Positions 4,296 through 61,974 of a stretch of DNA of 64,000 nucleotides are shown piece by piece. This stretch comes from Candidatus Bathyarchaeota archaeon. GTDB taxonomy: Archaea; Thermoproteota; Bathyarchaeia; Bathyarchaeales; Bathycorpusculaceae. The DNA lies in contig CAVZPM010000039.1 in NCBI GenBank assembly GCA_963777155.1, forward strand, positions 116,868 through 180,867, given 5' to 3'. The notes below the pieces were generated by a model, which worked only from the letters and a program-made list of their open reading frames with translations, was not told where the DNA came from and did not search any database. Within the stretch, counting starts at the first letter, position 1. Each line of letters starts with the position of its first letter. The position numbers and the translations under genes are program-made.

Positions 4296-4994
4296 TTAGA
4301 GGTGTTGTGCTACTATCATGGCGTGTGCTTTGTCGTAGGGTTCCAAATCGACGATTTCTTTAACGTCGAAACCCCTGTTTCTTAGGATGTTGGCTTCTTG
4401 GCGATAGACTGCGTTGGGGTCCATGGTTACGTCGATGCTTTGGGATTTGCAGGCTAGCATTACCCAGCCTTGGGATTTGAGGAAGACATCAGCGTTGTCC
4501 GCCAGCAATTTGGCCTGTTCAGGTTGTGCTACGTCGCAGTAGATTGTGTCTACTTTTCCTGAGATGAACATGGCATAGCGTTCGGGCATCCGCGCATCTT
4601 CCAACATTGGAGAGATGTTGGTTCGGTAAGCAGCAACGTTATTGACAAGGTCCCGAAGTGAGCGCTGCGCGAATTCAATGCAGTAAACATGTCCGCTGTC
4701 GCCTACGATGTCTGAGACGTGGCTGGGAGTGGTTCCCGAAGCAGCACCCAAATACAACACCTTAAAACCAGGCTCAATAGGAACGTTTTGCACGCCTTTA
4801 ATGATGCCTCCAGCAAGTTTGCTACGGAAAGCGTCCCAAACACGGTATTCAACGTATTTGAATTTGAAAAGCCGTTCACCATAAACCCTTAAACCAGGGG
4901 TTAAGTTTTTTGTAGCGAGACGTTGTGCGCCGTCTTCAAGCATTACTTGGTAGATCTCTTTGAATTTTGGGTGCGGTTTAACTTTGAGGTGCAC
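4296..4994 (-). CDS. flpA: fibrillarin-like rRNA/tRNA 2'-O-methyltransferase
   Basis: EYRVWDAFRSKLA, VLYLGAASGTTPSHVSDIVG, DVAQPEQA and LEPYDKAH motifs. Likely GTG start at 4994 overlaps the nop5 stop; the ORF-track extension to 5270 is an off-frame read of nop5. Confidence 0.95.
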   Translation of the reverse strand: MHLKVKPHPKFKEIYQVMLEDGAQRLATKNLTPGLRVYGERLFKFKYVEYRVWDAFRSKLAGGIIKGVQNVPIEPGFKVLYLGAASGTTPSHVSDIVGDSGHVYCIEFAQRSLRDLVNNVAAYRTNISPMLEDARMPERYAMFISGKVDTIYCDVAQPEQAKLLADNADVFLKSQGWVMLACKSQSIDVTMDPNAVYRQEANILRNRGFDVKEIVDLEPYDKAHAMIVAQHL

Positions 4995-6402
4995 GCCTGT
5001 CTGGTCCCCGGTTTTGACCGCCACCGCTACTGCCCCCGCGTCGCTCGCCTCTATCTCGCCCGCCGCCGTAACCAAAATTGCGGCCTCCACCTCCGCCGCC
5101 ACCGTTTCGTGGTGGTCTTGGACCTCGATCCCCGCCGCCAAAGTTTTTACCGCCACCTCTGAATCCTCCTCGATCGTCTCTCCGTGGAGGTCGTTGTTCT
5201 CGGCGTTCAAATGACCCTTCAGGTCTCGGTTTAGCTTCTTTTGGTGCTGGCGGTTCCTTGTATTTTTCATGGATTTCTTCTATGCGTTTGTTAATGTCCG
5301 CTTTTAATTTGTCTCCGATGTAGTGTCCTCCTCCGAAGGCGTCTGCTCTGGCTGCGATGGCTAGTTTGCCTGCGATGACTCTAGCGATTTTTCCTCGTTG
5401 CCACCTTTTCGCGTCATGGAGCAGGGTGTGCTGGAAGATTAAGCCGTGTTTTGGTGGTCGGGCTCCTGTTTTTAGGCTACGGAAGAGAGCTTTTTCTGCG
5501 CCTATGACTTGGATGGTGCTTGCTGGTCTCATAGCCAGATTCTGTAAGCTTCCAGCCATAGCGATTAAACGTGCACCCAGAAGGGCACCTGCAACTGAGC
5601 GGACGTTAGGTGCCAGTTCCTCCATGGTGTGGTCAACGTAGTCTTCCATGTTCTTGCGTAACAAATAGAAATCAAGTACGTCCTTAGCTAAGGCTTGTAT
5701 CATCTCAAGGTCGGCTTCTGCAATGTCTGCGCCCATGGATGATTCAGCTGCTTTGGCAACAAGTTCGCTTCGTTCTTTCGGAATATTCTCTTTTTCCAGA
5801 TTGTCAACGGTAAAGTCTTCCCTATCACCCAAGTTCAAAACAAGCCGTGAATAAGTTTCATGTTTCTCAACTAAGCGGTCAAGTTCAGGGAAGTACACGC
5901 CATACCATTCACGGAGTCTACCCATGAATAGGTTAACGGTTTGGTCTAAACTATCGAGCGTTTGAATGCCTTGAGCAACAATTAGATCGCGCTTTCCAGA
6001 GGCACCTTTAATCCTTAGCTTAGCAAGTTCCAAGCTGACATTGCGATTCCACGTGTTTAGTTCTTGTTCGTCTTGGGCAAAACCTGTTTCGATTGCAACC
6101 TCTCCCATACGGGAATGCAACACTGCGGTTTCTGCTGGCTTGGCAACTTCGACTGCGATTTTCAGCTTCTTTTGAGCTTCCTCTGCCAATTTGGCGGATT
6201 CAAAAGCAAACGTGTCATAACCAACGCTTGCTAAAAGTGTGATTAGTGAAGAGACTTGGTCGGATATTTTTCCCGATTCGGTTCTAAGCAGGCTCTTTGC
6301 TGCCGCCTGCGCCTTTTTTGGAAACAATGCTTTTTCTACTAAGCCGTTATTTTCGTCAAAGGCTGCTACGCCGAAGGGAAATTGAACTATGAATAGTTTC
6401 AT
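4978..6402 (-). CDS. nop5: box C/D RNP scaffold Nop5 (Nop56/58 homologue) with RGG-rich tail
   Basis: RLREWYGVYFPEL and PASTIQVIGAEKALFRSLKTGARPPKHGLIFQH (Nop domain); directly upstream of fibrillarin. Confidence 0.95.
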   Translation of the reverse strand: MKLFIVQFPFGVAAFDENNGLVEKALFPKKAQAAAKSLLRTESGKISDQVSSLITLLASVGYDTFAFESAKLAEEAQKKLKIAVEVAKPAETAVLHSRMGEVAIETGFAQDEQELNTWNRNVSLELAKLRIKGASGKRDLIVAQGIQTLDSLDQTVNLFMGRLREWYGVYFPELDRLVEKHETYSRLVLNLGDREDFTVDNLEKENIPKERSELVAKAAESSMGADIAEADLEMIQALAKDVLDFYLLRKNMEDYVDHTMEELAPNVRSVAGALLGARLIAMAGSLQNLAMRPASTIQVIGAEKALFRSLKTGARPPKHGLIFQHTLLHDAKRWQRGKIARVIAGKLAIAARADAFGGGHYIGDKLKADINKRIEEIHEKYKEPPAPKEAKPRPEGSFERREQRPPRRDDRGGFRGGGKNFGGGDRGPRPPRNGGGGGGGRNFGYGGGRDRGERRGGSSGGGQNRGPDRRAPQS

Positions 6403-6696
6403 TTTCTTGGCCCCGATAAACTATGTATTGTCACTGCATTGTCTTAATAAATAGTTTCGCTACCCTAAACTTAAAAGAACCGTTTTCTCCATGTTAGGGC
6501 TCACGGCAGTTCAGGGAAACTCGCCCATTATTTAAGGACAAAAACACGATCGAGATTTACCCTTTTCTTTAGCGGCCATTTGAATCGCCATAACAGTTGA
6601 AAAATAAAAAAATTGGCAGCCACAGTTTTCGGGGTCTTAATGTTTTTTATCCTCAAAAAATTTAATAGAACAGCTATAAATTAAGTTCCAACAAGG

Positions 6697-7626
6697 ATGG
6701 GCAAACACATACCCGCTCAGAAAACAAAACAAAAAGCAGCTGAAGCCAAAAATAAAACAGTTACAATTGGGCTTATCCAAACCGTCGTTTCAGAAAACAT
6801 AGCGGAAAACATGAAAAAAACTGCTGAAAAAATTGAACAAGCCGCTAAATTGGGTGCCCAAATCGTGTGCCTCCAAGAACTCTACCGCACAACGTACTTT
6901 CCACAGCTGGAAAATCAGGATACAAAGGGCTTAGCTGAAACCATTCCCGGCAAATCTACAGAGATATTTTCTGGGTTAGCGAAAAAGCATGGAATAGTTA
7001 TCGTTGCGCCCTTGTTTGAGAAAAGCAGAGAAGGAAAATTTTACAACACGGCAGTGGTGATTAACTGCGACGGCGAAATAATGGGCACCTACCGGAAAGC
7101 CCACATACCTTACGACCCCTACTTCTATGAGAAAAACTACTTTGAAGCAGGCGACACAGACTATCAGGTTTTTGATACAAGTTATGCTCGAATTGGGGTG
7201 CTCATCTGTTATGACCAATGGTTCCCCGAAGCAGCCCGCATCAATGCTTTGCGAGGTGCAGAAATCATCTTTTATCCAACCGCAATCGGTTACGTTAAAG
7301 GCTACACCTCCGCAGATGGAGACTGGCATGACGCCTGGAAAACCGTGCAGCGTGCCCACGCCATAGCAAACGGAATCCATGTCGCCTCAGTCAACCGAGT
7401 AGGCGAGGAGGGCGAGTTGGAGTTTTGGGGTGGCTCTTTTATCTGCGATAGTTTCGGCAAAGTTGTTGCTGAAGCCAGTACTTCAAAAGAAGAAGTGTTG
7501 ATTGCAACGTTGGATTTGGGTAAGAACAAGAAAATCCAAGAAGGCTGGGGGTTTCTGCGTAATCGACGCCCCGATACATACAAGCAGCTAACCATGGGCG
7601 GCAGGAAGGGTGCAGAAGATGAGTAA
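6697..7626 (+). CDS. aguB: N-carbamoylputrescine amidase (carbon-nitrogen hydrolase)
   Basis: Nitrilase triad CLQEL / YRKAHIP / ICYDQWFPEAAR; FYPTAIG and FLRNRRPDTY; overlaps agmatine deiminase. Confidence 0.88.
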   Translation: MGKHIPAQKTKQKAAEAKNKTVTIGLIQTVVSENIAENMKKTAEKIEQAAKLGAQIVCLQELYRTTYFPQLENQDTKGLAETIPGKSTEIFSGLAKKHGIVIVAPLFEKSREGKFYNTAVVINCDGEIMGTYRKAHIPYDPYFYEKNYFEAGDTDYQVFDTSYARIGVLICYDQWFPEAARINALRGAEIIFYPTAIGYVKGYTSADGDWHDAWKTVQRAHAIANGIHVASVNRVGEEGELEFWGGSFICDSFGKVVAEASTSKEEVLIATLDLGKNKKIQEGWGFLRNRRPDTYKQLTMGGRKGAEDE

Positions 7627-8668
7627 CTCCGAAAAAAGCTGCCGTGAACAGGGCTTTTGTATGCCTGCAGAATGGGAAAAACACGACGCTATCTGGCTCG
7701 CGTGGCCGTATGACCCGACAACTTTTCCGGACCGGGTGCATCGCGTTGAAGCCGTTTACGTCCAAATAATCAAAGAGATCCATGAGGGTGAACAAGTAAA
7801 CCTCTTTGTCATCGATCAGCCTACTAAACAGAAAGCAACAAAGTTGTTTAAAGAAGCGAACATCGACCTAAACAAAATCCATTTCTACGTTTCCGATTAT
7901 GCTGACGTCTGGTTTAGGGATTATGGCCCCATATTTGTTAGAAACCAGAACCACGAGCTTGCAATGGTTCACTGGGATTTTAATTCTTGGGGAGAAAAAT
8001 ACGAAACGCTCTTAAAAGACAAGCAAATCCCTGCCGTTATAAACCAAAAAATGTCCATTAAATGCTTTAAACCTGGCATCGTTCTGGAAGGTGGCTCAAT
8101 AGATGTCAACGGCAAAGGAAGCTTGCTGACCACAGAGCAATGCCTGCTTAATAAGAATCGTAACCCGCATCTTGGCAAAAAAGACATTGAAAAATTCCTA
8201 TCCGAATACTTGGGAGTAACCAATTTTATTTGGCTCAAGAACGGCATTTTGGGCGATGACACCGATGGCCACATCGACGACCTAGCCCGATTCGTCGACC
8301 CAGCTACAATCGTTTGCGCTTATCAAGACAACGAAAACGACGTAGACTACGATGCTCTAAAAGAAAACTATGACATCCTGTGCCAATCGCACGATCAAGA
8401 CGGCAAAAAATTCCGTATTATCAAGTTACCCATGCCCAAAGTCGTCAGCGACGAAGATGAACGACTGCCTGCAAGCTACACAAACTTCTACATCGGCAAC
8501 CAAAAAGTTCTGGTTCCAGTTTTCGATCACAAAAACGACTCAAAAGCTCTCTCGATTTTGCAAAAGCTGTTCCCAGCCCGTAAGGTGGTCGGCATCCGAT
8601 GCGTTGACTTGGTTTACGGCTTTGGCACAATCCACTGCATTAGTCAACAACAGCCCTGCGGTGTTTAA
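7619..8668 (+). CDS. aguA: agmatine deiminase
   Basis: MPAEWEKH, WFRDYGP, LEGGSIDVNG, DDTDGHIDD and GTIHCISQQQP motifs; ATG at 7619. Confidence 0.92.
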   Translation: MSNSEKSCREQGFCMPAEWEKHDAIWLAWPYDPTTFPDRVHRVEAVYVQIIKEIHEGEQVNLFVIDQPTKQKATKLFKEANIDLNKIHFYVSDYADVWFRDYGPIFVRNQNHELAMVHWDFNSWGEKYETLLKDKQIPAVINQKMSIKCFKPGIVLEGGSIDVNGKGSLLTTEQCLLNKNRNPHLGKKDIEKFLSEYLGVTNFIWLKNGILGDDTDGHIDDLARFVDPATIVCAYQDNENDVDYDALKENYDILCQSHDQDGKKFRIIKLPMPKVVSDEDERLPASYTNFYIGNQKVLVPVFDHKNDSKALSILQKLFPARKVVGIRCVDLVYGFGTIHCISQQQPCGV

Positions 8669-8772
8669 GAGTCAAACATAACATGGCAAAGTCCATTTTT
8701 AGTTAAGTTTAAACCCTTAACCTCCATAATAGGTAAACCCCACAGTTTGAGGAGTTCTGGAGAGAATAGGGC

Positions 8773-10989
8773 ATGGTAAATCAACCACCGATTCGTGCAC
8801 GCGGCGTCAAAGTGCTAAAAGCCGTTTCGTCACCGCTTAGGCTGCAAATTCTCAATTTACTCTTCGACAAAAGCGCCCTTAGCTATACCGAACTTATGAA
8901 CCAACTCAAAATGAACCCCAGCCGAGACGCAGGCAGATTCGCCTACCACCTAAAATTCATGCTTAAAGCTGACTTGGTTGAGGCAGATGTGGAAGCAAAA
9001 AAATATTACCTCACTGACCTCGGCAAGATGGTTTTGGATGTGGCTGACCGCGTGGAGAAAAAAGCAGTCAAGCCACGTGGCATGTTGGTTCGTACGTCAC
9101 ATTTGACGATGGAAGAGTTTGATGTTAATAAAATCGCAAATTCACTAATCAAAGAGGCGAAGGTTCCAGCGGAGTTGGCTCAGAAAGCCGCTAAAGAAGC
9201 CGAGAAACGCCTTATCAAATCCAAAACAAAGTACCTGACGGCAGCCTTGATCCGGGAAGTCGTGAACGGCATTTTGGTGGAGAAGGGCTATGAGGATTAC
9301 CGTCATAAGCTTACCCGAGTCGGGATGCCAATCCACGAAGTAACTTCTCTAATCGAAACTAAAGAGGGCATGCAGGACTGTCAAGCTACAATTAGCAAAG
9401 CAGGACAAGCAGTCTTAGGTGAATACACACTCCTGAATATTTTTCCAAGAGACATCGCTGACGCCCACCTGTCAGGCGCTATCCACGTCGACAACTTAGG
9501 CACCTGGGTCCTAAAACCCAACGAAGTAATCCATGACATACGATACTTCTTTCAACACGGTGTCAAACTTGACAACCTACTTCAAGTTGCAATGGAACCG
9601 CCAACTGACCTAAAATCCGCTCTATCTATCGCCTTTAACGTGCTTTTGCACGCCAGCAAAGAAACCAATCGGACTCAAAACTTCAACTACTTCAATGTAT
9701 TCCTCGCGCCTTATATCAGAGGCAACGAAGTGGCAAAAATTAAGGAAAACCTGCGGTTATTCATACAGAGCCTTAACCAGCACGTAGATGCAACATTAGG
9801 TCTTGAGATTGCAGTTCCCACGTTGTTGTCGGAAAAAGAAGCTGTGGGGTCGGGAGGCAAACTAAACGGTAAGTACAGCGATTTCTCCCAAGAAAGCCAA
9901 CTTGTAGCCTCACTTGTCATCGATGTCTTCACAGAAGAGAGTTCAGTTAAACCTCTTCTAAGCCCCAAACTAATAATAAAAATTAACAGTTTAGCTTTGG
10001 TTGATGAAAACGCCAAAGCGATTCTGCTTAAAGCTCACCAATTAGCTGTGAAAAGCGGTGTTCTATACTTTGCCAACATGACCAAAAAAGAAACCGAAAA
10101 CATAGCATTTTCATCCTCAGGGGTCAAGCTAGCTGCGGATTTGATAGGCGACTGGGAAACGGATACATTGCGAACCGGTTGTTTGGGCTGTGTAACCATA
10201 AACATGCCTAGAATTACTCAGGAATGTGAGAAAGACAAGAACAAGTTCTTCGATTTGATGCGTGAACGCTTCGAACTCGCCGCTCGTGCGCTGGGCATAA
10301 AGAACAATGCACTCAAGCAATTCGGGAAGAACTCGCTTCCATTTCTGTTGCAGAAATCAGACCGCGACACTTATTTCCGTCTTGAAAACTGTAGCCGAAT
10401 CGTAAACTTGGTCGGGTTCCGAGAAGCCATCGAAGCCTTCACAGAGAAAACTGTCAACTCAGAGGAGAGCCGTAAATTCACAGAAGAAATCATAAGCAAC
10501 CTGATGGCTTTTAGGCAGAAAATCGGCAGAAAATACGGGAAACGACTTTACCCCGTTATCCTCGGCAGTCCTGAAGCCTCTGAGCGGTTGGCACAACTGG
10601 ACATTGAACGGTACGGTGTTGCTAAAGTGAAGTTTTCAGGAACAAGAGACAAACCCTACTATTCAACGGTCAAACGGTTCCAGCTGAAACCCTCTGATTT
10701 TCTAGCTTTGCAGACGGATGCATTGGAGACAGCGAAGAGACTTAAGGGATTAAGCGCAGGGGGAAACCTGAGCATCATTGAACTTGAAAACGTCGAGTAC
10801 AAGCCGGAGGCGCTCATGGATCTGACGGTGCGTTTGATGGAGAACTACGCACTGGAGTTCTTTACGTACAACCGCCAAATCAGTGTCTGCGATAACTGCA
10901 AGAAGAATTGGTTTGGAACATTGCATAAGTGTCCTTCGTGCGGCTCTATGAGCAACCTGACAACGTTCGACCGGTTTACTTCGATTTGA
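8773..10989 (+). CDS. ArsR-HTH + ATP-cone + class III RNR (NrdD)-like fusion, apparently catalytically inactive
   Basis: aa ~10-95 ArsR wHTH (KAVSSPLRLQILNLL...FAYHLKFM..ADLV...YYLTDLG). aa ~104-185 ATP-cone (VRTS..EEFDVNKIANSLIKE...IREVVN). NrdD core motifs HLSGAIHVDNL and TLRTGCLGCVTINMPRI. C-terminal CxxC-CxxC zinc site, but no RxxGY. Confidence 0.85.
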   Translation: MVNQPPIRARGVKVLKAVSSPLRLQILNLLFDKSALSYTELMNQLKMNPSRDAGRFAYHLKFMLKADLVEADVEAKKYYLTDLGKMVLDVADRVEKKAVKPRGMLVRTSHLTMEEFDVNKIANSLIKEAKVPAELAQKAAKEAEKRLIKSKTKYLTAALIREVVNGILVEKGYEDYRHKLTRVGMPIHEVTSLIETKEGMQDCQATISKAGQAVLGEYTLLNIFPRDIADAHLSGAIHVDNLGTWVLKPNEVIHDIRYFFQHGVKLDNLLQVAMEPPTDLKSALSIAFNVLLHASKETNRTQNFNYFNVFLAPYIRGNEVAKIKENLRLFIQSLNQHVDATLGLEIAVPTLLSEKEAVGSGGKLNGKYSDFSQESQLVASLVIDVFTEESSVKPLLSPKLIIKINSLALVDENAKAILLKAHQLAVKSGVLYFANMTKKETENIAFSSSGVKLAADLIGDWETDTLRTGCLGCVTINMPRITQECEKDKNKFFDLMRERFELAARALGIKNNALKQFGKNSLPFLLQKSDRDTYFRLENCSRIVNLVGFREAIEAFTEKTVNSEESRKFTEEIISNLMAFRQKIGRKYGKRLYPVILGSPEASERLAQLDIERYGVAKVKFSGTRDKPYYSTVKRFQLKPSDFLALQTDALETAKRLKGLSAGGNLSIIELENVEYKPEALMDLTVRLMENYALEFFTYNRQISVCDNCKKNWFGTLHKCPSCGSMSNLTTFDRFTSI

Positions 10990-11910
<921 letters not shown>

Positions 11911-43018: not shown

Positions 43019-44002
43019 TTATTTTTGTGAGTCAATTTTGGCGTTGGCTATAGCCTGGCTTTTCTCGCTTAACATAGTTCTGTAGTTTGGGCTGACTGGA
43101 AAATCAACGTTGTTAACGCAGGAAAATTCAACCCTTTGTATATTAGGTGCTTTTCTAGCTTCTTCTAACAATATTTGAATACTCTTTAAGTCTGTAATTG
43201 GAGCCATTACCATAAGGTCATAGGGTCCGATGGTTTGTGTTACTATCAACACATTTTTTATGGTACTAAGATATGTTATTGTTTCTGATTTACTGCAGTT
43301 TGGAGTTAACGTAATCAACAAAAAGGTTTTGCCCTGGAAACCTAATTTCCCTAAGTCTATTGATACCCTGCATCCAAATATTATACCCTCTTTTTTCATC
43401 CTTTCGAAGCGTCTTTTAACTGTGCATGGGGTTGCACCAACCTTTTTGGCAATATCGACAAAAGAAAGTGCCGCATCTCTCTCAAGTTCGCTCAGAATAA
43501 GGTAGTCTGTTTTATTCGTGTTATTTTCCCTCTTTAAGCGGAAGATTAATATTATCAAAATTTAGGCAAGGTATCCCTGACCAAACAGACACAACTACCC
43601 TTCTAATTCCAGGAAGCCTTTTTACCAAATCCACGCGCTCGTTCAATTTTGTTAAATCCTCTGCATAGATTACTGCTTGGAAGTCATATTTTCCTAAACT
43701 AGTTGAGGGTTCAACCAAATAGGTATGTTCACTAAAAAATCTGAAGATTTGTGAAATATTAGCGTCAGAATCAAGTTCCATTCCAATTGAAGCGACAACT
43801 CGAAAGCCGAAAGTATCTAACGATGCGAAAAGTGTTGCGCCGGTTATTACACCAAGCTCTTTAAGTCGTTTTACTCTATTTAAGACCGAAACTGATGAAA
43901 TTCCACATTCTTTACCTATATTTTTTAAACTTCTTCGGGCATCTTGAATAAGAATGTGAAGAATTTGTTATCTATTTGATCTATTTCAACGATTGAGTTC
44001 AT
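43019..44002 (-). CDS. tandem Lrp/AsnC regulator modules (probably one double-domain gene, frameshifted)
   Basis: Module 1 from ATG 44002: IDQID..IL..LIQDARRSL..IGKECGISSVSVLNRVKRLKELGVI...GKYD. Module 2: DYLILSELERDAALSFVDIAKKVG...GPYDL. Confidence 0.8.
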
Positions 44003-44401
44003 TTTGCACATTTAAGGGCGGCGGATTAAATAAATTTTAGCCTAAAATTGACACTGCAGGAAAAATAATTTTTTCAACGCTTCTTGAAAGCAACTCTGTT
44101 ATGTCTAGAATATTGCTTTATTTTTCTAGAAATATTTCGGTTTTAGAACTATCTTTATATATGTTTTTTGGAGTTGTTTGTACTACGCCTAAATTGTGAA
44201 TTAGGTTCGCGGAAAGATCATAGATGTAACGTCAAGAAGGACCTCTCTTGCCGTTTGATTGCCCTTTCGATGAATTCAAAGGGAAACATGGTTTAAAGTT
44301 TGAAACCCTAAAATTACATAATGCTTACTTGTCCGCTTCCTTCAGGAAGGGATTTAAATAGTGTTACTTTTGCAAAATTGTGAATCATAAATTATTAGAG
44401 G

Positions 44402-44722
44402 ATGAAGTATTTGGGCAAAAATCGCGATGGTTTAAGCATAATTGCTGCCATTTTGGATGCTTGTAGTACTCAAACAAATAAGACCCACATTATGTTTTCG
44501 GCGAATCTGAGTTTCAAGTTACTAGAAAAGTACTTAGAAACTCTAACTCGGGCAAGGCTAATTAAAGTTGAAGGAAACAAATATGAATTAACAGAAGAAG
44601 GCCACGAGTTTATTGCTAATTTTAGAAATGTTCATGAGCGCTACATTTCTGCTCAAAAAACTTTCGAGTCCGTTGAATCCGAACGAAAAAAATTAGCATT
44701 AATGTATGAGGGAATCAGCTGA
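44402..44722 (+). CDS. archaeal winged-helix regulator (COG3432/HTH_45-like)
   Basis: RDGLSIIAAIL...KTHIMFSANLSFKLLEKYL..L...YELTEEG. Confidence 0.85.
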   Translation: MKYLGKNRDGLSIIAAILDACSTQTNKTHIMFSANLSFKLLEKYLETLTRARLIKVEGNKYELTEEGHEFIANFRNVHERYISAQKTFESVESERKKLALMYEGIS

Positions 44723-44824
44723 TTCTCAGTTTCAGTTAATATGTCCGGTTCAGAAGACCAGCTTTTTGAAGCAGAATATGGTGTTTCAAAAGATCAACGA
44801 CACTGATGCGAAGCAACAAATAGA

Positions 44825-45349
44825 TTGGAGGTACAAAAAATAAGAAACTGCCACAAACTTCTCGTTGTCACATTATCCATTTTGACGTTTAGCTATTGCC
44901 TTTGCAGCGAGAATTATGTTTTTGCCCAAACTGATTCGTCTGCCTTGAAACTGCAGGCGGCCAACAGCGTCGTCGGAAAGGCTTTCAACTCTGTTTTGGA
45001 AGCTGAAAAAGTAGGCGGAAACGTTTCCCAACTCTTAGTAAAACTAAATACTGCTGGAAGGTTTTTAGCAGATGCTCAAAACGCTTACAACAGTGGAAAT
45101 TCAACTAATGTTACATCCATGGTGGAAAATGCCCTTCAAATAGCCAATGAGGTTAATGCCGATGCGGTTAATTTGCGTAATGCAAGTCTTGTTGAATCTC
45201 AAAATAGTTTCTGGTTATCCTTGACTTTTTCCACTGTTGGCGCTGTTGTTTTTGCTGTCTCTTTGTTGTTTATTTGGCGACGATTTAGGCGCTCTTTCAT
45301 AAAGAAGTTGCTTTCTATGAAGCCTGAGGTGGCTGAAAATACAGCTTGA
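44825..45349 (+). CDS. hypothetical exported helical protein with C-terminal TM
   Basis: Signal-like N-terminus, AFNSVLEAEKVGGNVSQL helical bundle and a TM with basic tail. Confidence 0.7.
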   Translation: MEVQKIRNCHKLLVVTLSILTFSYCLCSENYVFAQTDSSALKLQAANSVVGKAFNSVLEAEKVGGNVSQLLVKLNTAGRFLADAQNAYNSGNSTNVTSMVENALQIANEVNADAVNLRNASLVESQNSFWLSLTFSTVGAVVFAVSLLFIWRRFRRSFIKKLLSMKPEVAENTA

Positions 45350-45932
45350 AAACATTCGAATTATCTTTATCACGATTGGCTTAATCGGAGTTTTACTGTT
45401 TGCATCACCAACTATAAGCTTTTTAATAAAACCGCCTGCAAACCAAGAGTTCTCTGAACTCTACATACTTGGACCCAATCACACCTTTGAAGACATTCCA
45501 TTTAACATTAAGGCTAAAGTGAACTATTCGGTTTATTTAGGTGTAGTCAATCATATGGGGACCTCATTTTACTACACATCTTTTGTTAAAATCACAAACC
45601 AGACCGAATCCCTTCCTAATGCAAATCTTGGTACACCCAGCCAACTTCCTGCTTTGTATGAATTCAAGTCGTTTATTAGCGATGGGGGAATATGGGAGGT
45701 GCCATTAACATTTCGAGTTAACGAATTAACCTTTACTGATGGGACGTCGCGGATCTCCAGTATAACTATTAATGGAATAGAATTATCTGTTAACCAAACA
45801 TCTGCATGGAATTCAGACAAAGCAGGATATTACTATAATCTTTTTGTCGAACTTTGGATATATAATTCTTCATTGGGAATCTCACAATTCCATAACAGGT
45901 TTGTTTCTTTACTTCTCAACATGACACAATGA
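45333..45932 (+). CDS. DUF1616-like membrane-anchored protein
   Basis: Frame open from 45321 through a TM and EFSELYILG...VYLGVVNHMG. No ATG/GTG/TTG before 45519, so the start is probably CTG 45333 or ATA 45339 after GAGGTG. Confidence 0.7.
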   Translation: MKIQLENIRIIFITIGLIGVLLFASPTISFLIKPPANQEFSELYILGPNHTFEDIPFNIKAKVNYSVYLGVVNHMGTSFYYTSFVKITNQTESLPNANLGTPSQLPALYEFKSFISDGGIWEVPLTFRVNELTFTDGTSRISSITINGIELSVNQTSAWNSDKAGYYYNLFVELWIYNSSLGISQFHNRFVSLLLNMTQ

Positions 45933-46018
45933 TTTGAAATATTGTGAAGAATCCTGCTTGAGTCAAACTGCTAGAGATAGTCAAATGTTGGAATGTTAGA
46001 TTAAGGGGTGTTGATAAA

Positions 46019-47229
46019 ATGAGTATTATTGAAATATTATTTTGGTTATGTCTTGGGGGACTTACATTATTTTACGGTACTTATTCAAGTTTGATGTATA
46101 AGTCAGCAAAAAGAAAACCAATTAAAGTTCATGAATCAATCATCAAATTCCCAGAGAAACAGGGATTCACTCCCAAAGTATCCTTAATTGTTGCAACATA
46201 TAATGAAGCAAAAGTTATTCAAAGAAAACTAATGAATATACAAGAATTAGAATATCCAAAAGATGACTTGGAAATCATAATAGTTGATAGTGCTTCCACT
46301 GACAACACTGTGGAATTAGCTAAGGCTTTTTTGGAAAATCAGAGTACTCTCTCTTTTCGCATTTTAACTCAAGCAAGAAGGGAAGGGAAAGCTTCAGCGT
46401 TGAATTATTGTCGACCATTTTGTAGTGGCAATATTGTAGTACTGACTGATGCGGATGTAATTTATGATAAGTGTGCATTAGCTCTACTTGTGGCTGGTTT
46501 TAGAGATCAATCTGTTGGAGCGATTTCTGGAAAAATAGTTATATGCAATCCCGACGAGTCATCGTCAACCAAATGCGAAAAATCATATAGAGGTATTTTC
46601 GAGATTCTTAGGATAGGCGAATCCAATCTTGATTCAACACCGATATTTAACGGTCCAATTTCTGCATTTAGAAAAGAACTATTAGATGACCTTAATCCTG
46701 CAACAGTTGCAGACGATACTGAATTGTCTTTGAAAATACGAGAAAAAGGCTTGGAAATCTATCTACGAACCTTTCGCTATAGCTTATGAATATACTCCAG
46801 ACAATTTCAAGTCTAGAAACAAACAAAAAATCAGAAGAGGTCAGGGCGTCATCCAATCATTTTTGTGGCATCGAAAAATGTTTTTCCGCTCCAAATACGG
46901 CTTTTATGGACTATTTATTTTGCCAGCTGAAATTTTCATGCATGTTATTTCTCCACTACTTGTCGTTGCGACAATTTCGTTAGGATTTTTGAATTTAGCA
47001 TTTACACCAGGTTTTATTTTGTTTGGGTTACTGGCAATAGTTATATTGGCTTTATTTAGCCTTATTAAATTAATTCTGAAATTCTTCGAGCCAAAGGAAT
47101 ATTTTCGACCCAATTGATGCACTTATTACTTTTCTAAATATCCAATATAACCTTATATTCAGTATGATTTCCCTCGTTTCAAAGAAAAACGGTTCTATGT
47201 GGGAAAAGATTGAAGATGTCAGGCACTAA
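46019..47229 (+). CDS. GT2 glycosyltransferase, cellulose-synthase-like membrane type (frameshifted)
   Basis: N-terminal TM; IVATYNE, VDSASTD, GKASALN, TDAD and ADDTEL; C-terminal TMs in shifted frames. Confidence 0.85.
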
Positions 47230-47563
47230 ATTAAATTTTCTTGGTGTTTGAATTAATTATTCTTACTCGATTGGAATGGTTCATTTTTGATTGTTTTAGG
47301 ATGCATTTTTGTTGCGTGAAAATTAATCGCTCAAAAATGGAATACGACATTTTACAAAAGAATAATGGTCTGTTCAAATCTTGATTTAAGGGTACTCGAA
47401 GATATGCTGGAAAATAGTAAAACATTTCTTTGCATATCTGTACTCAAATAAGGTTCTCTTTTAGACTTTCTTATTAAGAGATTTTATTGAGTTTGGTCGG
47501 ACTTACAAAATCAAACTATGACAATGTTCACGAAAAGATAAAATCGCTGATAACTGGCGGGGC

Positions 47564-48360
47564 ATGAATCTTGAAAATGGTGATACCGTAGGTCTAAGAT
47601 TAATTTGTGTGATTTCTGATTGACCTGAGACTGGAGCTGTTACTCACCCGATGTCTTTCTTGATGCTACATTGAGGTATCTTACGATCAGAATTTAAAAA
47701 TTTGAACATTTTGTTGTTGAGAGTGATGCATCTATGCTCGTCCAGATCTTCTAATTAAATGGCTTGGATTTGAGAGTATTCTCAAGAGGAATAATGCAAA
47801 ATACATCAATCTTTCAAAAACTGCAACATTCCAAAAAGTCTATAAATGGGCGGTATTTCAAAGAAATGGATATTCCAGCACTATTTGTTGGCTCAAATTA
47901 TTTTATTTCTATGGCCAAACTGAAAACAGCCATGCTTACAAAAGTTACATGTTGCTTGAAAAATCAGTTTGGATGTATTCCTTATCGAAAAAAAAGTTTC
48001 ATACTAATCTGGATGACGTTATTGTAGATTCTAACCTAGCAATGAAACCGGATTTTTGTATTGTAGATGGAATTGTAGCTATGGGCGGAACTAAAGGACC
48101 AAATGATGGAGTTCCCTAAATTATGGAACAATAATTTCTGGGAAAGATCCAGTAGCTGTTGATAGTGTATGTGCAAAAATTTTAGGATTTTAACCCTTAT
48201 TTTGTTGGTCACATTAGAAAAGCTCAGGGATCATCCTCAGGACGTAAAATGTAAGATAATCGGTGAAAATCTTGATGCAGTAGCAAAGAATTCGGAATAT
48301 AGCGATTCATATGCAAGAATTTTAAGGTGGACCATGGGTTTAAAAAATAGTATAGGGTGA
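47564..48360 (+). pseudogene. DUF362-like protein, heavily fragmented (errors or decay)
   Basis: Fragments TGAVTHP, VVESDAS, MAKLKT..TKVTCCLKNQFGC, IVDGIVAM and DPVAVD; 5' end uncertain. Confidence 0.6.
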
Positions 48361-48365
48361 AAAAA

Positions 48366-49409
48366 ATGAAAGTTGGTGTAATTGGTTGCGGGATGATCGC
48401 AAAAAAGGCTCATTTGCCAGCTTATCGGAGCCTTGAAAATGTTGACATAATAGGCGTCTCTGATATTGAAGAGGACAAGCCAAATCAATAGGCAAGAAGT
48501 TCGGCGCAAACAAATGGTTTACAGACTATCATGAGTTGTTAAAGGAAGATTTAGATTTAGTGAGTATTTGTACTCCTATTTCTACTCATGCTCAAATTAC
48601 CAAAGATGCAGCTGAAGCAGGTGTAAACGTGCTTGTAGAGAAACCGATGGCGACAACCACTCAGGAAGCGGATGAGATGATTGATGCATGCAGGCAATCT
48701 GGCGTGCAACTATGTGTTATGCATAACTTTCGGTTTGTTCCATGTCTTCTGGAGACTAACAAGAGAATTGACGATGGTCGGATAGGTCGTATAGTCAGTA
48801 TTCAAGCAACTAAATATGACCTGATTCCAATGTCTTGGAGTCATAGTTCGTGGTTCTAATTATAAATGGGGTCTTCTAGAAGATGTTGGGATTCATATGA
48901 TTGATGCGATAAATTTTTTATGCAACTCTGAACTTGAAGATGTTAAAGTTATTGCAAGAGACTATACCGATAATATGGGTTGCTTGAACCACGTCTTATC
49001 AATGATGTTGTTCAAGAACAAAGCCACTGCATCTCTTGATCTTTCATGGGTTTCAGGTTGCGTTGAAAGCTCATTGAAGGTACAAGGTACAGGAGGAATG
49101 TTAAATGTTGATATTAGAAATAACCATATGCAGGAAATTCACGGATATTCTACTCCTTTGGAAGACTTGAAGAGCCAGACAAAGAAATCATTTAGAACCA
49201 TGAGGAGTGCTCTCAATAAAACATACTTTAAAGGCACAATGTTATATCACAGGCAAATTATAGAGGATTTTATTTCAAGCATTACAGAAGGAAGAGAACC
49301 TCCGGTAACTGGGGAAGAAGGAAGAAAATCGATTGCGATCTTGGGTGCGATAAAGCATTCTCAAGAAAACACCTTCGAAAAAGAATCAGATTGCAGGCTT
49401 TCATCTTGA
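48366..49409 (+). CDS. Gfo/Idh/MocA oxidoreductase (frameshifted)
   Basis: MKVGVIGCGMIA, ICTP..H, VLVEKPMA, HNFRF and DVGIHMID. Confidence 0.85.
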
Positions 49410-49424
49410 TTGTCCAAGCAATAG

Positions 49425-50777
49425 TCAATGAGACGAATAGTAGTTCTTTATAATGTTTCCGTATGGTGTTGGGGTTCCGTTCCAATCTGCTATTAGCATG
49501 TCTGCGTTGTCGTAAGCTGATGTACTCCATCTCCAAGCAGTATATCCACTGTACCCGTCTGCATCACTTACCGCCATGAAATTATTAAGCCATGTAGTAA
49601 CGAAAGCATTAGGGTTGCCTGTGGTACTCCAGTCTGGACCAAATTCAGTGAAGATTACGGGGTAACGTGCTTTTACCCAATCAGCATATAAAGTGTAGTC
49701 GCCGTTGCTACCTAAACAATATCGTATGCCTGACTGAGAATTATCTGTTTTCCCTTGTGCGTATAGATGACCACAATAAACTATGTTAGGCCGATTTATA
49801 GCATAAGATTGGACAAACTGTAAACTTAATGTGTCCCAATCCCCAGAACCAGCAGCTTGAACAACAACTATGGCCTGAGAGTCGTAAGCTCGTATTGCAT
49901 CAATCGCCGCTTCATTTTGAACTTTATATGTTGCAAGGTTACAATTTAGTGGTTCATTATATAGTTCATACATTACGCCTTTGCCAGCATATCGTTGTGC
50001 TAACTGTGAATAAACTGAAGTATAGTCAGCCCATGTATGATGCACAGACATATAGTGAGCAACGTTCATCGTGTCTATACCGTGAGAACATTTTCCCATT
50101 GTTGCCCAGCCGCATATGATTGGGTAGATGCCGTTTGCTATTGCTGCGTTGACTTGGCTGTCAAGACGTGTCCAGAAAGCAGAATTGCTATAGACGCCAA
50201 GATTTCCTGGTGAAGTTCCGATGTCCCAATCGGAAATTGTGAGGCGTACCGCGTTGCATCCCCAGTTCTTCATGTAAGCGTATTGTGCTGCGTCGTAGCC
50301 TACTCCTGCATCCCACCATGTTGTAATAGAGTTATCTACACCTCTTAGAATTACAGTGTTGCCGTTTGCATCTTTGATTTTGTTTCCATCAACATGTAAA
50401 CTAGAGTATTGTTGTGTTGGGGTAGGAGTCGGACTCGGTGTCGATGTAGGACGCGGAGTTGACGTTGGCGTAGCTGTGGGTTGAGGTGTCGATGTAGGAC
50501 GCGGAGTTGACGTTGGCGTAGCTGTGGGTTGAGGTGTTGAAGTAGGAATCGGGGTTGATGTCGGCGTTGGTATTGGCGTTGAAGTTGTACTTGGCGCAGG
50601 TGCCAGTGTTGGTGTCGATGCTACAATTTGGGAATAAATAATTGATCCGTTGGATAAAATATTCGTGGATGTGCTTGCATTAGATTGTGCAACTATAATC
50701 GGCAATGACGTTAGGAAAGTAACAGAAATAAGAAACGTGAACAGCAGAGTTACTGATGACTTGTGACTGTGTTTTAT
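49425..50777 (-). CDS. secreted glycoside hydrolase family 5 with Pro/Thr linker
   Basis: [36 protein letters not shown] (acid/base) and IFTEFG (nucleophile). The signal peptide extends in frame upstream of TTG 50705 to ATA 50777. Confidence 0.88.
50437..50532. repeat. perfect 48-bp tandem duplication in the GH5 PT linker
   Basis: GGTGTCGATGTAGGACGCGGAGTTGACGTTGGCGTAGCTGTGGGTTGA at 50437 and 50485. Confidence 0.9.
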
Positions 50778-51564
50778 CTTCTCACCCTTTTGTTATTGTG
50801 TATTAAGATATAATATATATGTTCCTTTTTGTCGTTTCAAATCTCCAATGTGTCCAACTTGTATACAAAAGGTGGCTGAATACTCAATAGCTCGAAAAAT
50901 GCCTATAAAAGAACCGAATGCACATCAAAGAGAATTAATACAAACTAAAGGCTATGCGCTTCTGCTTTTAATGAAATATTATCTTCAAAGAAACAAAACA
51001 AAATATTTAGGTATCTGAGGTATAAGAAATAATGGATATTATCTACTCCTGTCAGCAGGAGATTATTAGATCTATCTTCATCTTCAATTTTTCAACTAAA
51101 CTACAATATAACGGATTTCTTGCTGTAGCCAAGATAGATTTGAAATACGCAACACTAACGTATTTTTAGATCGCTAAAAATCTAAGAAATCGTTGATGAA
51201 AAAAAGTGATTTGGATTTTTGGTATGATTGAGTAAAAAGCAAATATGCCTGATTACAAGAGCTTTGAAAATGATGAATTACTAGCTGTTTCATGCAACAC
51301 TGAACAGAGAACGCAAACCATTTGTACCCTCAACTTCACTTAAATATTGCTGAGGAAGCTGCGAAGTTGTTTTTCAACGTGCCCTTTTGAGTAATCAAAA
51401 GTGTCTCAACAGAGGCTATTTCAAGGTGTCCTCAATTATTATAAACTGAATGCGGGAAGATTCTTCCAGCAAACCATCTCTCCTGAATGCCATAAAGCAA
51501 TCATCAACTATTCAGAGAAAAAAGAAAAAAAATAATTACCGCGTATTACCCGAGTGACAGCATT

Positions 51565-52539
51565 ATGAAAACTTTGGACTCTCCGACGCCAACAGTATCT
51601 GTAATTATCCCAACAAGGAATGAGGAACAAGGTATTGCTGAGTGTTTAACTGCTGTTTTTAATCAATCATTTAAACTCTTTGAAGTTATTATTGTTGATG
51701 GACGATCAACCGATAATACCATAAAAGTGGCTAGCAAATTTCCAGTAAAAGTATTTACTGAGTCTGAACCATCTTCTCTGCCAAATGCAAGAAACATTGG
51801 CGCTGAGAACGCTCAAGGCGACATATTGTTCATTATGGATGCTGATGTCATAATAGACAAAGATTGTATAATGAACGCTGTAAAATATTTTGAAGACTCA
51901 CAAATAATAGGTGTAATCCCTATGGAAAACAATATAGCTCATTCCAGACTAGAAAAAATCCAGATTGACTGGTATCGAGGTAGCGCAAATCCAATTAGAA
52001 GTGGTATTGGTATTTCAGTTTTTGCTGAATTTTTGCGAAAATCCATATTTGAAAAAATAAAGTTTGATCCTTGCCTCGGTTACGGGGAGGATGGCGATTT
52101 TCAACGAAGAATGCTTAGTTCTTATGGCAACTCTGGCAAAATAGTGCGTTCTTCTGATAGTAAAATATCAGCCCATTATTGTCACACGTTAAAGGATTTG
52201 TATTCGCAATACTGTTGGTATGGCAGGACTTTTATAGGATACTTACGGAAGAATTTTCAGCTAAAACCAATCCTGAACCTTGGAAGTTTACTTGCTCCTG
52301 CATTATTAATAATCTTAGGATTGATCACTATTGTTTTTCCTATATTGCTCCCCCTATTCATAGTACTTGCTGTTCTTATATCTGCAAGAAACCTCATGGT
52401 ATGCATTCGCTCCCGAAGTTCGACCTTTTTTGAGTTTCTAGGATTCGAATTCTTGAGATCTTTATTCTTCTTAAGAGGTCTTCTCCAAGGCTTCATTTTC
52501 CAAGAAAAGAGGCAGATAATGGACAGATGGTCCATTTAA
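51565..52539 (+). CDS. GT2 glycosyltransferase
   Basis: VSVIIPTRNEE, VDGRSTD, ARNIG, MDAD and GED; C-terminal TM. Confidence 0.9.
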   Translation: MKTLDSPTPTVSVIIPTRNEEQGIAECLTAVFNQSFKLFEVIIVDGRSTDNTIKVASKFPVKVFTESEPSSLPNARNIGAENAQGDILFIMDADVIIDKDCIMNAVKYFEDSQIIGVIPMENNIAHSRLEKIQIDWYRGSANPIRSGIGISVFAEFLRKSIFEKIKFDPCLGYGEDGDFQRRMLSSYGNSGKIVRSSDSKISAHYCHTLKDLYSQYCWYGRTFIGYLRKNFQLKPILNLGSLLAPALLIILGLITIVFPILLPLFIVLAVLISARNLMVCIRSRSSTFFEFLGFEFLRSLFFLRGLLQGFIFQEKRQIMDRWSI

Positions 52540-52552
52540 CGAGAGTGCAACA

Positions 52553-54219
52553 ATGAAGGGAAGAACTACTCTTTGGATAGTAGGGATTGCAAGCGTTTTA
52601 CTACTTTCCTTTCAAGTATTACTTTCAACAAAAATAACTAGTTATAGTTCAACCGATTGGGGGCTAATATTACGATTACCACCGACTTTTTGGATAGGCT
52701 TATCTCTTCTTGGGGTGCTTCTCTACACCGGCAGAAAGTCTGAACGTGAAACAGTCATCGCCACAATACTGATCTTTTTCTTTTTATTCGTCATACCTAT
52801 ACTAGTATTAGAGAATAGAGCAGCATGGCTTTCAATATCCTACTATCGCGCTGGTCAAACGGATTATATTCTATCATCTGGTCACCTTCAATTCAATGAC
52901 ATCAATCCTTGGGAGCTACTTAACTGGCCCGGATTCTTTTTTATTTCAGCTTTTGTGACAGCAACAACCGGTTTGCCAACAACATTGATGGCAGAAGGGT
53001 TTCCCCTTTAATCTCTAGCTTTAATAGGGATTGTAACTTATGCCATTCTAAAACTAAGATTCAACAATATTTACTCCTGCCTCGGCGCTTTATGGGTTAT
53101 TGCCAGTTTTTATACTGGTCAACAATATTTTTCTCCACAAGCAACCGCTTATGTATTTTACCTCGCAATTCTATTGCTTGTCGGCAGACTTTTCTTAACA
53201 AAGTCTTGGAGCACTGCCTTAACAGCAAGCATTTTGATACTTTTCGTCGCTTCTGTAACCACACACCTGCTTACATCTTTCTTAATTATGGGTGGCGTTG
53301 TTGCAGTTTATCTTCAAGAAAAATATTCCTTAGAAAAGTCAACTTATCCCCTTTCTTCTCCATAACTATTTGTCTCTTGCTCATGTCAATATTCTTTGTC
53401 TATCAAACAATGATTATAAAGGGTAGTTTTATTGAACTCACAAGTTCTCTTTACGGGCAGATTATGGGTCAAGATACTCATATAACCCAAGTAGCTGGGA
53501 TATCGCAGAATCGAGTGATTGGCTCAACTGCTTATACCTTGGAGATATTTGGAACTTACAGCATAACTATACTTTCTGTAATTATAGCAGTTGCTTCAAC
53601 TCTAATCGTGTTATACGGTCTATTAAAGCATAAGACAGGGGCCAAATCAGATGTTTTCTGGATAGGCTGGATCATCATCGCTGCCATGCTTGGCCTTTCT
53701 ATAAGTTACGGAGGCGAGGGGATAGCTCGTGCTTTCATGTTCATTCTAATACCAACCTGCTATTTTGCCATAAAATACTTAAGGAAAAAACCCCGAATAC
53801 TAATAGTTATTATTATTCTACTAATATTCATTCATTTTCCTGCTTCATACGCACGCGAAAACTATATTTACGTTCCAACAACTGAAATCAAAGGAGCAAC
53901 CGCATTATCGCAATATACACCTCCAACTGCACTAATATTCTATGAGTTTCTTGCGCCAATGCCTTTTTCAATAAACGAAACCCGTCATTTTGTTAACATT
54001 CAGGTGCTTGTAGGTTTTTACTCGCTGCCCAGTTCCGAGATAATCAACGCTGCTTTAGGTGAAGCACAATTCGTTGTTTCCTCAAGTCTACAAAACAATG
54101 TATATCAATACTTTTTCGGAACAAACATCCTCGCAAAATACGACCTTAATCAAAATCAAAGTCGTCTCTATGATAACGGGGAATTCACAATATTCAGCAA
54201 AACTATACCAACCCCATAG
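52553..54219 (+). CDS. polytopic membrane protein of the glycan cluster (GT-C/polymerase-like), frameshifted
   Basis: More than 10 hydrophobic segments over three frames; NWPGFF, QYFSPQ, TTHLLTS and RLYDNG motifs. Confidence 0.6.
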
Positions 54220-54251
54220 CATTAAACTAATAAAAAATATTTAGAAAAAAG

Positions 54252-55016: not shown

Positions 55017-55100
55017 AGTTCTGATTAGGCTTTAGCAACTCAGTGGTCAAAAATATTAGATCTGTAATGGAACTATTTAACGGGGGCTCTTAAGAAGAGT

Positions 55101-56020: not shown

Positions 56021-56047
56021 CTGGTTGCATAGAAACAAAACGTTTAA

Positions 56048-56823: not shown

Positions 56824-56983
56824 TTATAATTAGTCACTTAAGATTGTATAAAAAAATTGATTGCTAGTGAGAGCGTCTTATTAGGAACAATCACAATTCA
56901 CAGAAGAGGAAGTAGACGGCATAAGGGGCTCTTCATAGTTCACCAAAAATTGGCGCCAGCAAAAAATGTGCAGAGGTCTTAAT

Positions 56984-57987: not shown

Positions 57988-58244
57988 AATTGGTGCCATC
58001 GACTGGACACACCTGCTGTAGGTTTATTTAAAACTTTTCAGAAGCGACTGGCTTCTTTGCAGAGAGTGTAACTCGATATCAGTAGTTTCATATAAACATG
58101 TGATTACTGTCAATCTGATCTAAACATTGACTATCAGCGGAGTTAAGGATTTGATATATTGATTTGGGCTGCATTAGGTTTTATAACACCAGTTGCAGCT
58201 GACTTAAGTTAACCATATTTACGGTAAATGATGGAGTTAGAGAT

Positions 58245-60648: not shown

Positions 60649-60696
60649 TTCGCTCTATAGACTTGATTCACTAGGCTGGTAAACAATGGAAAGAAC

Positions 60697-61950: not shown

Positions 61951-61974
61951 TTTGATACTTAAGGAAGAAGTTGT

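Follow-up and report, generated by a model that had tools for sequence, protein, structure and literature searches.

We analyzed a 64,000-nt window of contig CAVZPM010000039.1, from a Candidatus Bathyarchaeota archaeon (assembly GCA_963777155.1), and we describe here one of its genes. The gene is an intact open reading frame (ORF) of 738 amino acids (aa) at positions 8773..10989 of the forward strand, and the base after its stop codon opens pyrB, the gene for aspartate carbamoyltransferase, on the opposite strand. A preliminary description, drawn from the DNA letters, had divided the product into an ArsR-type winged helix-turn-helix (wHTH), an ATP-cone, a barrel of the anaerobic, class III ribonucleotide reductase (RNR) NrdD and a CxxC-CxxC zinc site. 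Pfam finds the wHTH, the ATP-cone and the barrel in the same ORF, and the zinc-site cysteines stand at residues 706, 709, 720 and 723 (Table 1). The preliminary description had further proposed that this protein is an RNR whose chemistry has been lost and whose remaining fold now serves a nucleotide-sensing transcription factor, a functional analog of the bacterial regulator NrdR.

Domain architecture and catalytic residues

The N-terminal wHTH exceeds the cut-offs of both of its models (22 bits for HTH_5 and 27.6 bits for DUF7347), and a profile of the family matches HlyU/ArsR structures with E-values from 3e-4 to 1e-2. Residues 1-100 contain no Cys and a single His (H59); consequently, the ArsR-type thiolate metal site is absent, and the NCBIfam metalloregulator model gives 31.5 bits against a cut-off of 55. 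The zinc ribbon of NrdR (PF22811) is missing from the ten Pfam families that match the protein at E up to 1. The ATP-cone lies just over its Pfam threshold (28.8 bits, cut-off 25.8). The NRDD match covers positions 10-538 of a 562-position model, and among solved structures the protein matches those of NrdD best, with E = 1e-10 when searched as one sequence and about 2e-42 when searched as a family profile. Against the NrdD equivalog TIGR02487 the protein scores 248.8 bits, below the cut-off of 326.35; a real NrdD from a related genome, of the type that neighbors the gene in other families, scores 514.3 bits.

We tested the residue equivalences with three alignments: a 110-row MAFFT alignment that includes real NrdDs of related genomes, HMMER alignments to the T4, E. 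coli-type and Prevotella NrdD structures, and a profile-profile alignment (hhalign) of 50 family members with 14 real NrdDs (probability 100%, E = 5e-146). The roles of the HxHD motif in triphosphate binding, of the NxN flap, of Cys416 and of Gly711-Tyr712 are those given in the excerpted text of PMC11226230, and excerpts of PMC9669993 give the thiyl-radical Cys motif of the finger loop as MGCR or MCCR and the conservation of the βA Cys in class III enzymes as 92.6%. The corresponding motifs of the real NrdDs read R-P-F-C, M/Q-C-C-R (or M-G-C-R) and S-R-I/V-T-G-Y. In the protein under study, the canonical Cys after RPF is matched by E251 (KPNE, residues 248-251), and the profile-profile alignment sets MCCR/QCC against S448-S449-G450 (SSGVK, residues 448-452). 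Depending on the alignment, the radical Cys falls opposite S449, G450 or V451; residues 444-456 contain no Cys at all. The glycyl-radical motif S-R-I/V-T-G-Y is matched by D-R734-F-T-S737-I738 and then a stop codon (DRFTSI, residues 733-738).

The substrate site has deteriorated as well. The HxHD motif has become H238-V-D-N241, and in the profile-profile alignment the region of the otherwise invariant N-x-N flap is a gap or a variable stretch; the flap is absent. By the same alignment, the first GGQ loop (A-G-G-Q in real NrdDs) reads N-R-T-Q302 within ETNRTQ (residues 297-302), and the second (R-G-G-Q) has been lost in an 8-residue deletion before H337, within the stretch SLNQHVDAT (residues 333-341). 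The erosion of both GGQ loops that the preliminary description had suspected is therefore real. Its residue numbers, obtained by manual alignment, are exact, and its equivalences for KPNE251, SSGVK and R734-F-T-S-I hold in the MAFFT, HMMER and hhalign alignments alike.

The losses of Cys and Gly are shared by close relatives. We counted residues in the best 120 homologs, which are 75-100% identical to the protein. Cys is absent from the finger-loop stretch 444-456 in all of them; position 251 is Glu in 118 and Cys in none. In the tail, R734 is kept in 117, F735 in 116 and S737 in 113, Gly is found at position 737 in none of the 120, and the conserved C-terminus reads F-D-R-F-x-S-T/I. The four zinc-binding cysteines are retained in 119 of the 120. 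As judged from these alignments, we regard it as confirmed that the protein joins a wHTH to an NrdD that is catalytically dead.

The barrel nevertheless keeps some of the sequence character of NrdD, including the motifs DAH.SG, LNLPR, GL.EA, RLA.LD and GG, together with H238 and the S-P-E loop in this lineage. The retention of H238, LNLPR, the S-P-E loop and GG in this lineage, and the purifying selection that acts on the barrel, with a proportion of replacement differences (pN) of 0.15-0.24, could be read as signs of a bifunctional enzyme-regulator, with a barrel that has kept a non-radical chemistry or turns over nucleotides. That is very unlikely when every residue known to take part in NrdD chemistry or in binding the substrate (the radical Gly, both Cys, the HxHD motif, the NxN flap and both GGQ loops) is lost or variable, and when many members of the family lack the tail and some the zinc ribbon.

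Table 1. Positions, in the window, of the gene, its domains and motifs, and the adjoining features
Feature	Position	Strand	Basis
AT-rich box resembling a TATA box and TFB recognition element (TATA/BRE-like)	8699-8714	+	Alignment of 21 same-genus upstream regions
Second conserved upstream block	8726-8735	+	Alignment of 21 same-genus upstream regions
Whole gene: wHTH, ATP-cone-like domain, dead NrdD barrel, zinc ribbon and truncated tail	8773..10989	+	ORF, Pfam
ArsR-type wHTH, residues 14-89	8812..9039	+	DUF7347 31.5 bits, HTH_5 27.2 bits
Divergent ATP-cone and conserved linker, residues 105-186	9085..9330	+	Pfam ATP-cone, residues 105-177
NrdD-type barrel without catalytic residues, residues 204-734	9382..10974	+	Pfam NRDD 223.2 bits
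Eroded substrate-site motifs: H238-V-D-N241 for HxHD, E251 for the βA Cys	9484..9525	+	Alignments
Finger-loop tip S448-S-G-V-K452 in place of M-C/G-C-R; no thiyl-radical Cys	10114..10128	+	Alignments
Retained Cys4 zinc ribbon: C706, C709, C720, C723	10888..10941	+	Invariant in 50 family members
Degenerate glycyl-radical motif R734-F-T-S-I-stop	10972..10989	+	Alignments
pyrB, aspartate carbamoyltransferase, convergent, tail-to-tail	10990..11910	-	TIGR00670 395.5 bits

Conservation, relatives and origin of the family

All four Pfam domains are present in 118 of the best 120 homologs. Compared with two same-genus orthologs, the gene has a low pN (0.12-0.19) against a saturated proportion of silent differences (pS, 0.76-0.81). 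The wHTH is the most constrained domain (pN = 0.05), followed by the cone and linker (0.06-0.07) and by the barrel, at the values given above. A DNA contig from another sample covers positions 8922-11052 with 89 substitutions and zero gaps, and in the contigs of four runs from other samples no indels inside the ORF are reported. One metatranscriptome library has contigs over parts of the gene, contigs of this sort being no proof of transcription and the lack of cover over other parts carrying no meaning. The truncated tail, for which two single-base read errors had been considered, is genuine: none of the 120 homologs restores Gly737, and the contigs of other samples contain no indels. The losses of Cys and Gly, whose conservation the preliminary description had named as a check, are conserved under purifying selection, with neither residue in any of the 120 homologs and pN far below pS. 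A pseudogene, or an error of assembly or sequencing, is ruled out by these conserved losses, by the low pN beside saturated pS and by the lack of indels.

The dead protein commonly coexists with a real RNR. Nearly all of 60 relatives have one full NrdD (480-680 bits, extending to model position 562) and the present protein as its paralog (190-320 bits, ending near position 538). Reading from match coordinates, we find a separate full nrdD in 35 of 36 same-genus genomes, beside nrdG in the two loci examined. A complete same-genus genome carries an nrdR-nrdD-nrdG operon of bacterial style (G003:C1:352500-357500), and a second same-genus locus is alike. The operon encodes an NrdR with a zinc ribbon (53.7 bits) and an ATP-cone (74.2 bits), an NrdD of 661.6 bits with an 84.6-bit cone, and a radical S-adenosylmethionine activase. 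The whole operon is absent from the assembly that contains our window, which is 90.6% complete; no NrdG over the cut-off and no NrdR ribbon were found anywhere in it. The preliminary description had noted that no nrdG lies nearby, which is so for the entire genome assembly. Its suggestion to look for a separate nrdD, nrdG or nrdJ has a divided outcome, since this assembly yields none and 35 of the 36 same-genus genomes yield a full nrdD. Considering the full nrdD and the operon in the same-genus relatives, the operon is most likely in the part of this bin that was not assembled.

It is against this background that one may ask if the ORF is, after all, a class III RNR that is active by way of an unusual radical site, or else a decaying pseudogene or assembly artifact. 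The protein is the sole NRDD match of its genome, which has no detected class I or II RNR, and databases name it an anaerobic RNR. We find this explanation scarcely credible. No Gly or Cys returns in any of the 120 homologs, the score falls under the equivalog cut-off, a separate nrdD is the rule in the genus, and the family is conserved in obligately aerobic ammonia oxidizers; the ORF is intact, its silent sites are saturated with few replacements, and contigs of other samples lack indels.

The family is large and broadly distributed among archaea. A search of a representative library returned 1722 relatives at E up to 0.001 and 325 at E up to 1e-30, in which family members and real NrdDs are mixed, and more than 120 full-length homologs share the same architecture. 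Among contigs from one genome per species, at least 589 relatives are encoded among the 599 pattern matches listed. Family members come from sources named, among others, Bathyarchaeota, Jordarchaeia/Freyarchaeota, Promethearchaeota, Odinarchaeia and Nitrososphaerales, and their annotations read 'anaerobic ribonucleoside-triphosphate reductase', 'ArsR family transcriptional regulator' or 'hypothetical'. The protein itself is not in the ESM Atlas; a search there with a homolog lists clusters with DUF7347, ATP-cone and NRDD, most commonly from the phyla Bathyarchaeota, Nitrososphaerota and Promethearchaeota; related clusters that bear the helix-turn-helix (HTH) also come from Thermoproteota and Nanobdellota. 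The family is found in Bathyarchaeia, ammonia oxidizers, Asgard archaea and DPANN.

No HTH-bearing row of the 110-row alignment has the catalytic set, where rows were divided by length, a rule that misplaces three real NrdDs with long N-termini whose matches begin at query residues 67-102. Distant members vary further; some keep the Gly alone, many lack the tail and some lack the zinc ribbon. In a maximum-likelihood tree, one branch (SH-aLRT 100) parts 43 family rows from 17 real NrdDs. The tree comprises 60 rows picked from about 130, with labels assigned by hand and real NrdDs that are all matches of this query, and it was inferred by a quick search under LG+G4 and left unrooted. Its topology fits a single origin of the family, as far as an unrooted tree with a narrow sample of enzymes can tell. 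The archaeal nrdD type that adjoins the gene in other families has an N-terminus very similar to the cone and linker of the family, which suggests that the family arose by duplication of that enzyme.

Three observations concern variant or partial copies. In one ammonia-oxidizer genome the paralog is split by an in-frame TGA (G359:C1:1756001-1758057), and another has, elsewhere in the genome, an extra 78-aa fragment that consists of the HTH only and contains stop codons (G071:C1:1091142-1091396). Some families of the phylum show partial NRDD matches within open frames of 1100-2800 aa (for example, G097:C7:309471-310364 and G066:C11:8839-9867), which may be intein-bearing or fused nrdD genes. 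Our literature searches found no description of the family and no report of an RNR barrel that serves as the body of a regulator; subscription journals and supplementary tables, such as data sets derived from RNRdb, may list such sequences.

Gene neighborhoods and promoter elements

We now turn to the genes that surround the family, counting adjacency to nrdD and nrdJ by eye from match coordinates. In other families of the same order, the paralog is found on the same strand as a real nrdD (the type scoring 480-550 bits) and directly upstream of it in 11 of 12 genomes; in the twelfth, the two genes are on different short contigs. A 101-aa CxxC protein of the glutaredoxin fold (PF00462, 36.9 bits) is encoded between them in four of the seven loci read, and we take it to resemble an NrdH-like reductant gene for that type of NrdD. 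The redoxin gene stands just before nrdD in four genomes, in one of them at locus positions 4552-4857. Where the paralog adjoins nrdD, the gene for NrdG lies at a different place in the genome, and in three such genomes pyrB converges on the end of nrdD.

A taxonomic family of ammonia oxidizers, with archaeal AmoA in all five genomes tested, shows a second arrangement. This group has no real nrdD: all 45 of its genomes in the phylum sample have only weak NRDD matches (E = 1e-14 to 1e-23), and these belong to a 690-720-aa protein of the same architecture that scores about 41 bits for DUF7347, 31-38 for the ATP-cone and 88-91 for NRDD, and that ends right past the zinc ribbon. The paralog and the class II RNR gene nrdJ occur together in 60 of 61 genomes from 27 genera. 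Within those 60, the paralog is found within about 2 kb of nrdJ in 55 (54 times upstream on the same strand and once divergent), and the two are on different contigs in the other five. The identity of NrdJ is confirmed by 486.5 bits for PF02867 and 727.8 bits for TIGR02504. In the five genomes searched for it, covering both types of adjacency, to nrdD and to nrdJ, the NrdR zinc ribbon was not found.

In the lineage of our window, the constant neighbor is pyrB. In 73 species loci the flank is long enough to tell, and in 70 of these pyrB is convergent and no more than 300 nt from the end of the gene, so that the pyrB neighborhood to which the preliminary description drew attention is both real and conserved. 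Among metagenome loci of relatives without an assigned lineage (26-36% identical to an Asgard query and used for the pyrB count only), pyrB is downstream and convergent in 20 of 28, the paralog there being only about 32% identical. The simplest history begins with an ancestral cluster of paralog, redoxin gene and nrdD that stood tail-to-tail with pyrB; this lineage would then have lost the redoxin gene and nrdD. In one genome of another family, a 602-aa family member without the zinc ribbon is divergent from argF, a gene of neither RNR nor the pyr pathway (locus 5755-8633). A pyr link in that family was considered and rejected, as the carbamoyltransferase beside the paralog is ArgF (TIGR00658, 405 bits) and not PyrB.

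Adjacency and co-occurrence with real RNR genes would also fit a protein that does not act on transcription at all, one whose dead barrel joins NrdD, NrdJ or replication proteins as a regulatory or scaffolding subunit and whose HTH tethers the assembly to DNA, for instance to supply deoxynucleoside triphosphates (dNTPs) locally. The barrel motifs shared with NrdD and the zinc ribbon, which is kept though the Gly loop that it normally supports is gone, would be explained in the same way. We consider such a partner unlikely. The neighboring enzyme is of class III in one lineage and of class II in another, and their dimer interfaces differ (excerpts of PMC9669993), which makes one conserved heteromer improbable. 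Moreover, the gene is strongly conserved in a lineage where 80 loci have no RNR gene within 7 kb, and its most constrained domain is the HTH.

The upstream regions contain candidate regulatory elements. In 20 aligned ammonia-oxidizer loci, the region upstream of nrdJ has a conserved block whose end is formed by a dyad (arms of 7 nt, spacer of 5 nt), about 60-80 nt before a TATA-like box. The exact core of this dyad occurs once or twice per genome, with one copy at nrdJ, in four of five genomes, and its left arm is similar to a short sequence that recurs in Bathyarchaeia upstream of the redoxin-nrdD pair. Upstream of the ammonia-oxidizer paralog itself, the conserved box is a different one, some 30 nt ahead of the start codon. 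Upstream of our gene, two blocks are conserved (Table 1), and the nrdR promoter of the same genus has nothing like them. A scan for bacterial-type promoters and terminators stayed at chance level, the scan model being bacterial and the host an archaeon.

Three further features of the window were noted. Upstream of the gene, at window positions 6697-8668, are two genes of polyamine-pathway type, for a carbon-nitrogen hydrolase (214.7 bits) and an agmatine-deiminase-type PAD_porph protein (410.5 bits); they are not conserved at the one same-genus locus compared. Positions 4978-6402 of the reverse strand encode a 474-aa ORF with a long Gly/Arg-rich C-terminal tail, by eye of the Nop56/58 type. 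The G+C content is 0.34-0.39 at about 44000-64000 versus 0.41-0.49 in the first 44 kb, which could reflect an island or a different class of genes.

Proposed function

We think it rather probable that the protein is a nucleotide-responsive, one-component regulator of RNR or other dNTP-supply genes, derived from a dead class III RNR and analogous to NrdR. The N-terminal ArsR-type wHTH would bind DNA, and the cone, barrel and zinc ribbon would form a module for dimerization and for sensing a ligand, most likely adenine or deoxy-nucleotides. According to that ligand, the protein would tune the transcription of dNTP-supply genes, as a functional analog of NrdR and not as its homolog in architecture. 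From the domains and their neighborhoods we infer DNA binding, ligand-driven oligomerization, which ligand is bound, whether regulation is positive or negative, and the operator; the same applies to the target in this genome, where the nrdH-nrdD neighbor pair has been lost and pyrB remains.

The comparison with known systems clarifies the proposal. Fusions of an HTH to an aminotransferase, of the MocR/GabR type, join the DNA-binding domain to the fold of a metabolic enzyme from the pathway that they regulate. The present protein has the same general design, with a radical RNR as the donor enzyme. It is homologous to NrdD over the cone, the barrel, the zinc ribbon and the remnant of the tail; unlike NrdD, it has no radical Gly-Tyr, finger Cys, βA Cys, HxHD motif, NxN flap or GGQ loops, it has gained a wHTH, and its family is set apart in the tree. 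[quoted passage not shown] Like NrdR, the protein combines a DNA-binding module with a domain of the ATP-cone type, and its relatives, though not the gene itself, stand beside RNR genes; in the ammonia oxidizers, the neighboring nrdJ promoter contains a dyad element. Unlike NrdR, it has a wHTH in place of a zinc-ribbon DNA-binding module, a whole dead RNR barrel, a length of about 740 aa and a cone without the K-R pair, and a real NrdR coexists with it in the same genus. The analogy drawn in the preliminary description consequently stands in one respect, in that relatives adjoin RNR genes of two classes, as fits an RNR-linked regulator, and fails in another, in that the protein is no simple replacement of NrdR in a genus that has the nrdR-nrdD-nrdG operon.

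Within the family, invariance is greatest in the cone and linker, with V106, R107, F116, I121, L125, E128, R161, L168, R177, R182, G184 and P186 unchanged in 50 members. The region of loop 2 and of the specificity site (s-site) is variable across the family. The preliminary description had held that the allosteric activity and specificity sites are kept; the sequence does not support this, as the cone has no K-R pair, loop 2 and the s-site vary, and the substrate motifs are eroded. Sensing of a nucleotide by the RNR-derived part is plausible.

A different explanation starts from these same deficits. The protein could be a regulator that senses something other than a nucleotide, or nothing, as a pure dimerization scaffold, with a regulon that is not centered on RNR and with adjacency to RNR genes and pyrB as inherited synteny. 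The lack of the canonical ligand pair in the cone, the eroded substrate and specificity-site motifs, the absence of a target found in this genome and the argF neighbor in one other family would all be expected of such a protein. However, adjacency recurs with two unrelated classes of RNR in distant lineages, and the invariance of the cone and linker argues for a conserved ligand or contact site. On balance, we judge the scaffold or non-nucleotide sensor improbable.

Several findings weigh against a nucleotide-responsive regulator of dNTP supply. First, in an alignment with genuine ATP-cones (those of NrdD, NrdJ and NrdR in related genomes), the place of the canonical V-x-K-R-D-G is taken by V106-R-T-S109, with T108-S109 in place of the phosphate-binding K-R pair, about 7 residues of the last cone helix are missing before Y176-R177, and the family profile matches no solved ATP-cone. 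Second, no RNR gene lies near the gene in its genome. The ORF is the only NRDD match in 2.29 Mb at 90.6% completeness, the genome profile search found no class I or II barrel and no RNR at all in the assembly, and none of 80 species loci of this lineage has an RNR gene within 7 kb. Being convergent, pyrB cannot share a promoter with the gene. Third, same-genus genomes already possess NrdR, together with NrdR-box-like inverted repeats upstream of nrdR-nrdD-nrdG, so that the paralog is not needed there as a regulator of nrdD. Finally, synteny among related genomes is not independent evidence.

Further such findings concern the operator. The dyad upstream of nrdJ could belong to another factor, and nothing ties it to this protein. 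Across seven nrdH-nrdD promoters of Bathyarchaeia, recurrence is limited to a half-site-like element and two AT-rich boxes, from which no dyad can be defined. The ammonia-oxidizer dyad is not enriched in our genome (9 matches with at most two mismatches, compared with 7-12 in five shuffles), and the combined upstream motif of the gene (8699..8735) is unique to it and marks no other gene. In this genome no target or operator could be identified, and pyrB as a regulatory target is not supported.

A wider version of the proposed regulator can be put forward tentatively, and we would doubt it slightly more than we would believe it. In this version, the family is a pan-archaeal master regulator of dNTP synthesis, with the present protein as its founding example. 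A duplicated class III RNR would have lost its radical chemistry, gained a wHTH and become the archaeal counterpart of NrdR, reading nucleotide pools through its cone and barrel and controlling class III RNR in Bathyarchaeia and, via the 7-5-7 nrdJ dyad, the B12-dependent class II RNR in all ammonia-oxidizing archaea.

To our knowledge, how most archaea regulate the transcription of their RNR genes is not known. The abstract of PMC9110341 describes NrdR as a bacterial regulator that occurs in only some archaea. The family described here is widespread in archaea and usually adjoins genes of DNA-precursor synthesis, and it is therefore probably an undescribed regulator of that synthesis. Hundreds of genomes mislabel it as 'anaerobic ribonucleoside-triphosphate reductase', which wrongly implies anaerobic dNTP synthesis, for example in the aerobic Nitrososphaeria, and the label can hide the absence of a real RNR from a bin, as it does in this genome. 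If the proposed function is true, the family would clearly exemplify how an ancient radical enzyme can become a sensor domain, and it would provide a candidate RNR regulator that could be tested directly, also in cultured ammonia oxidizers, where it lies upstream of their single, essential nrdJ.

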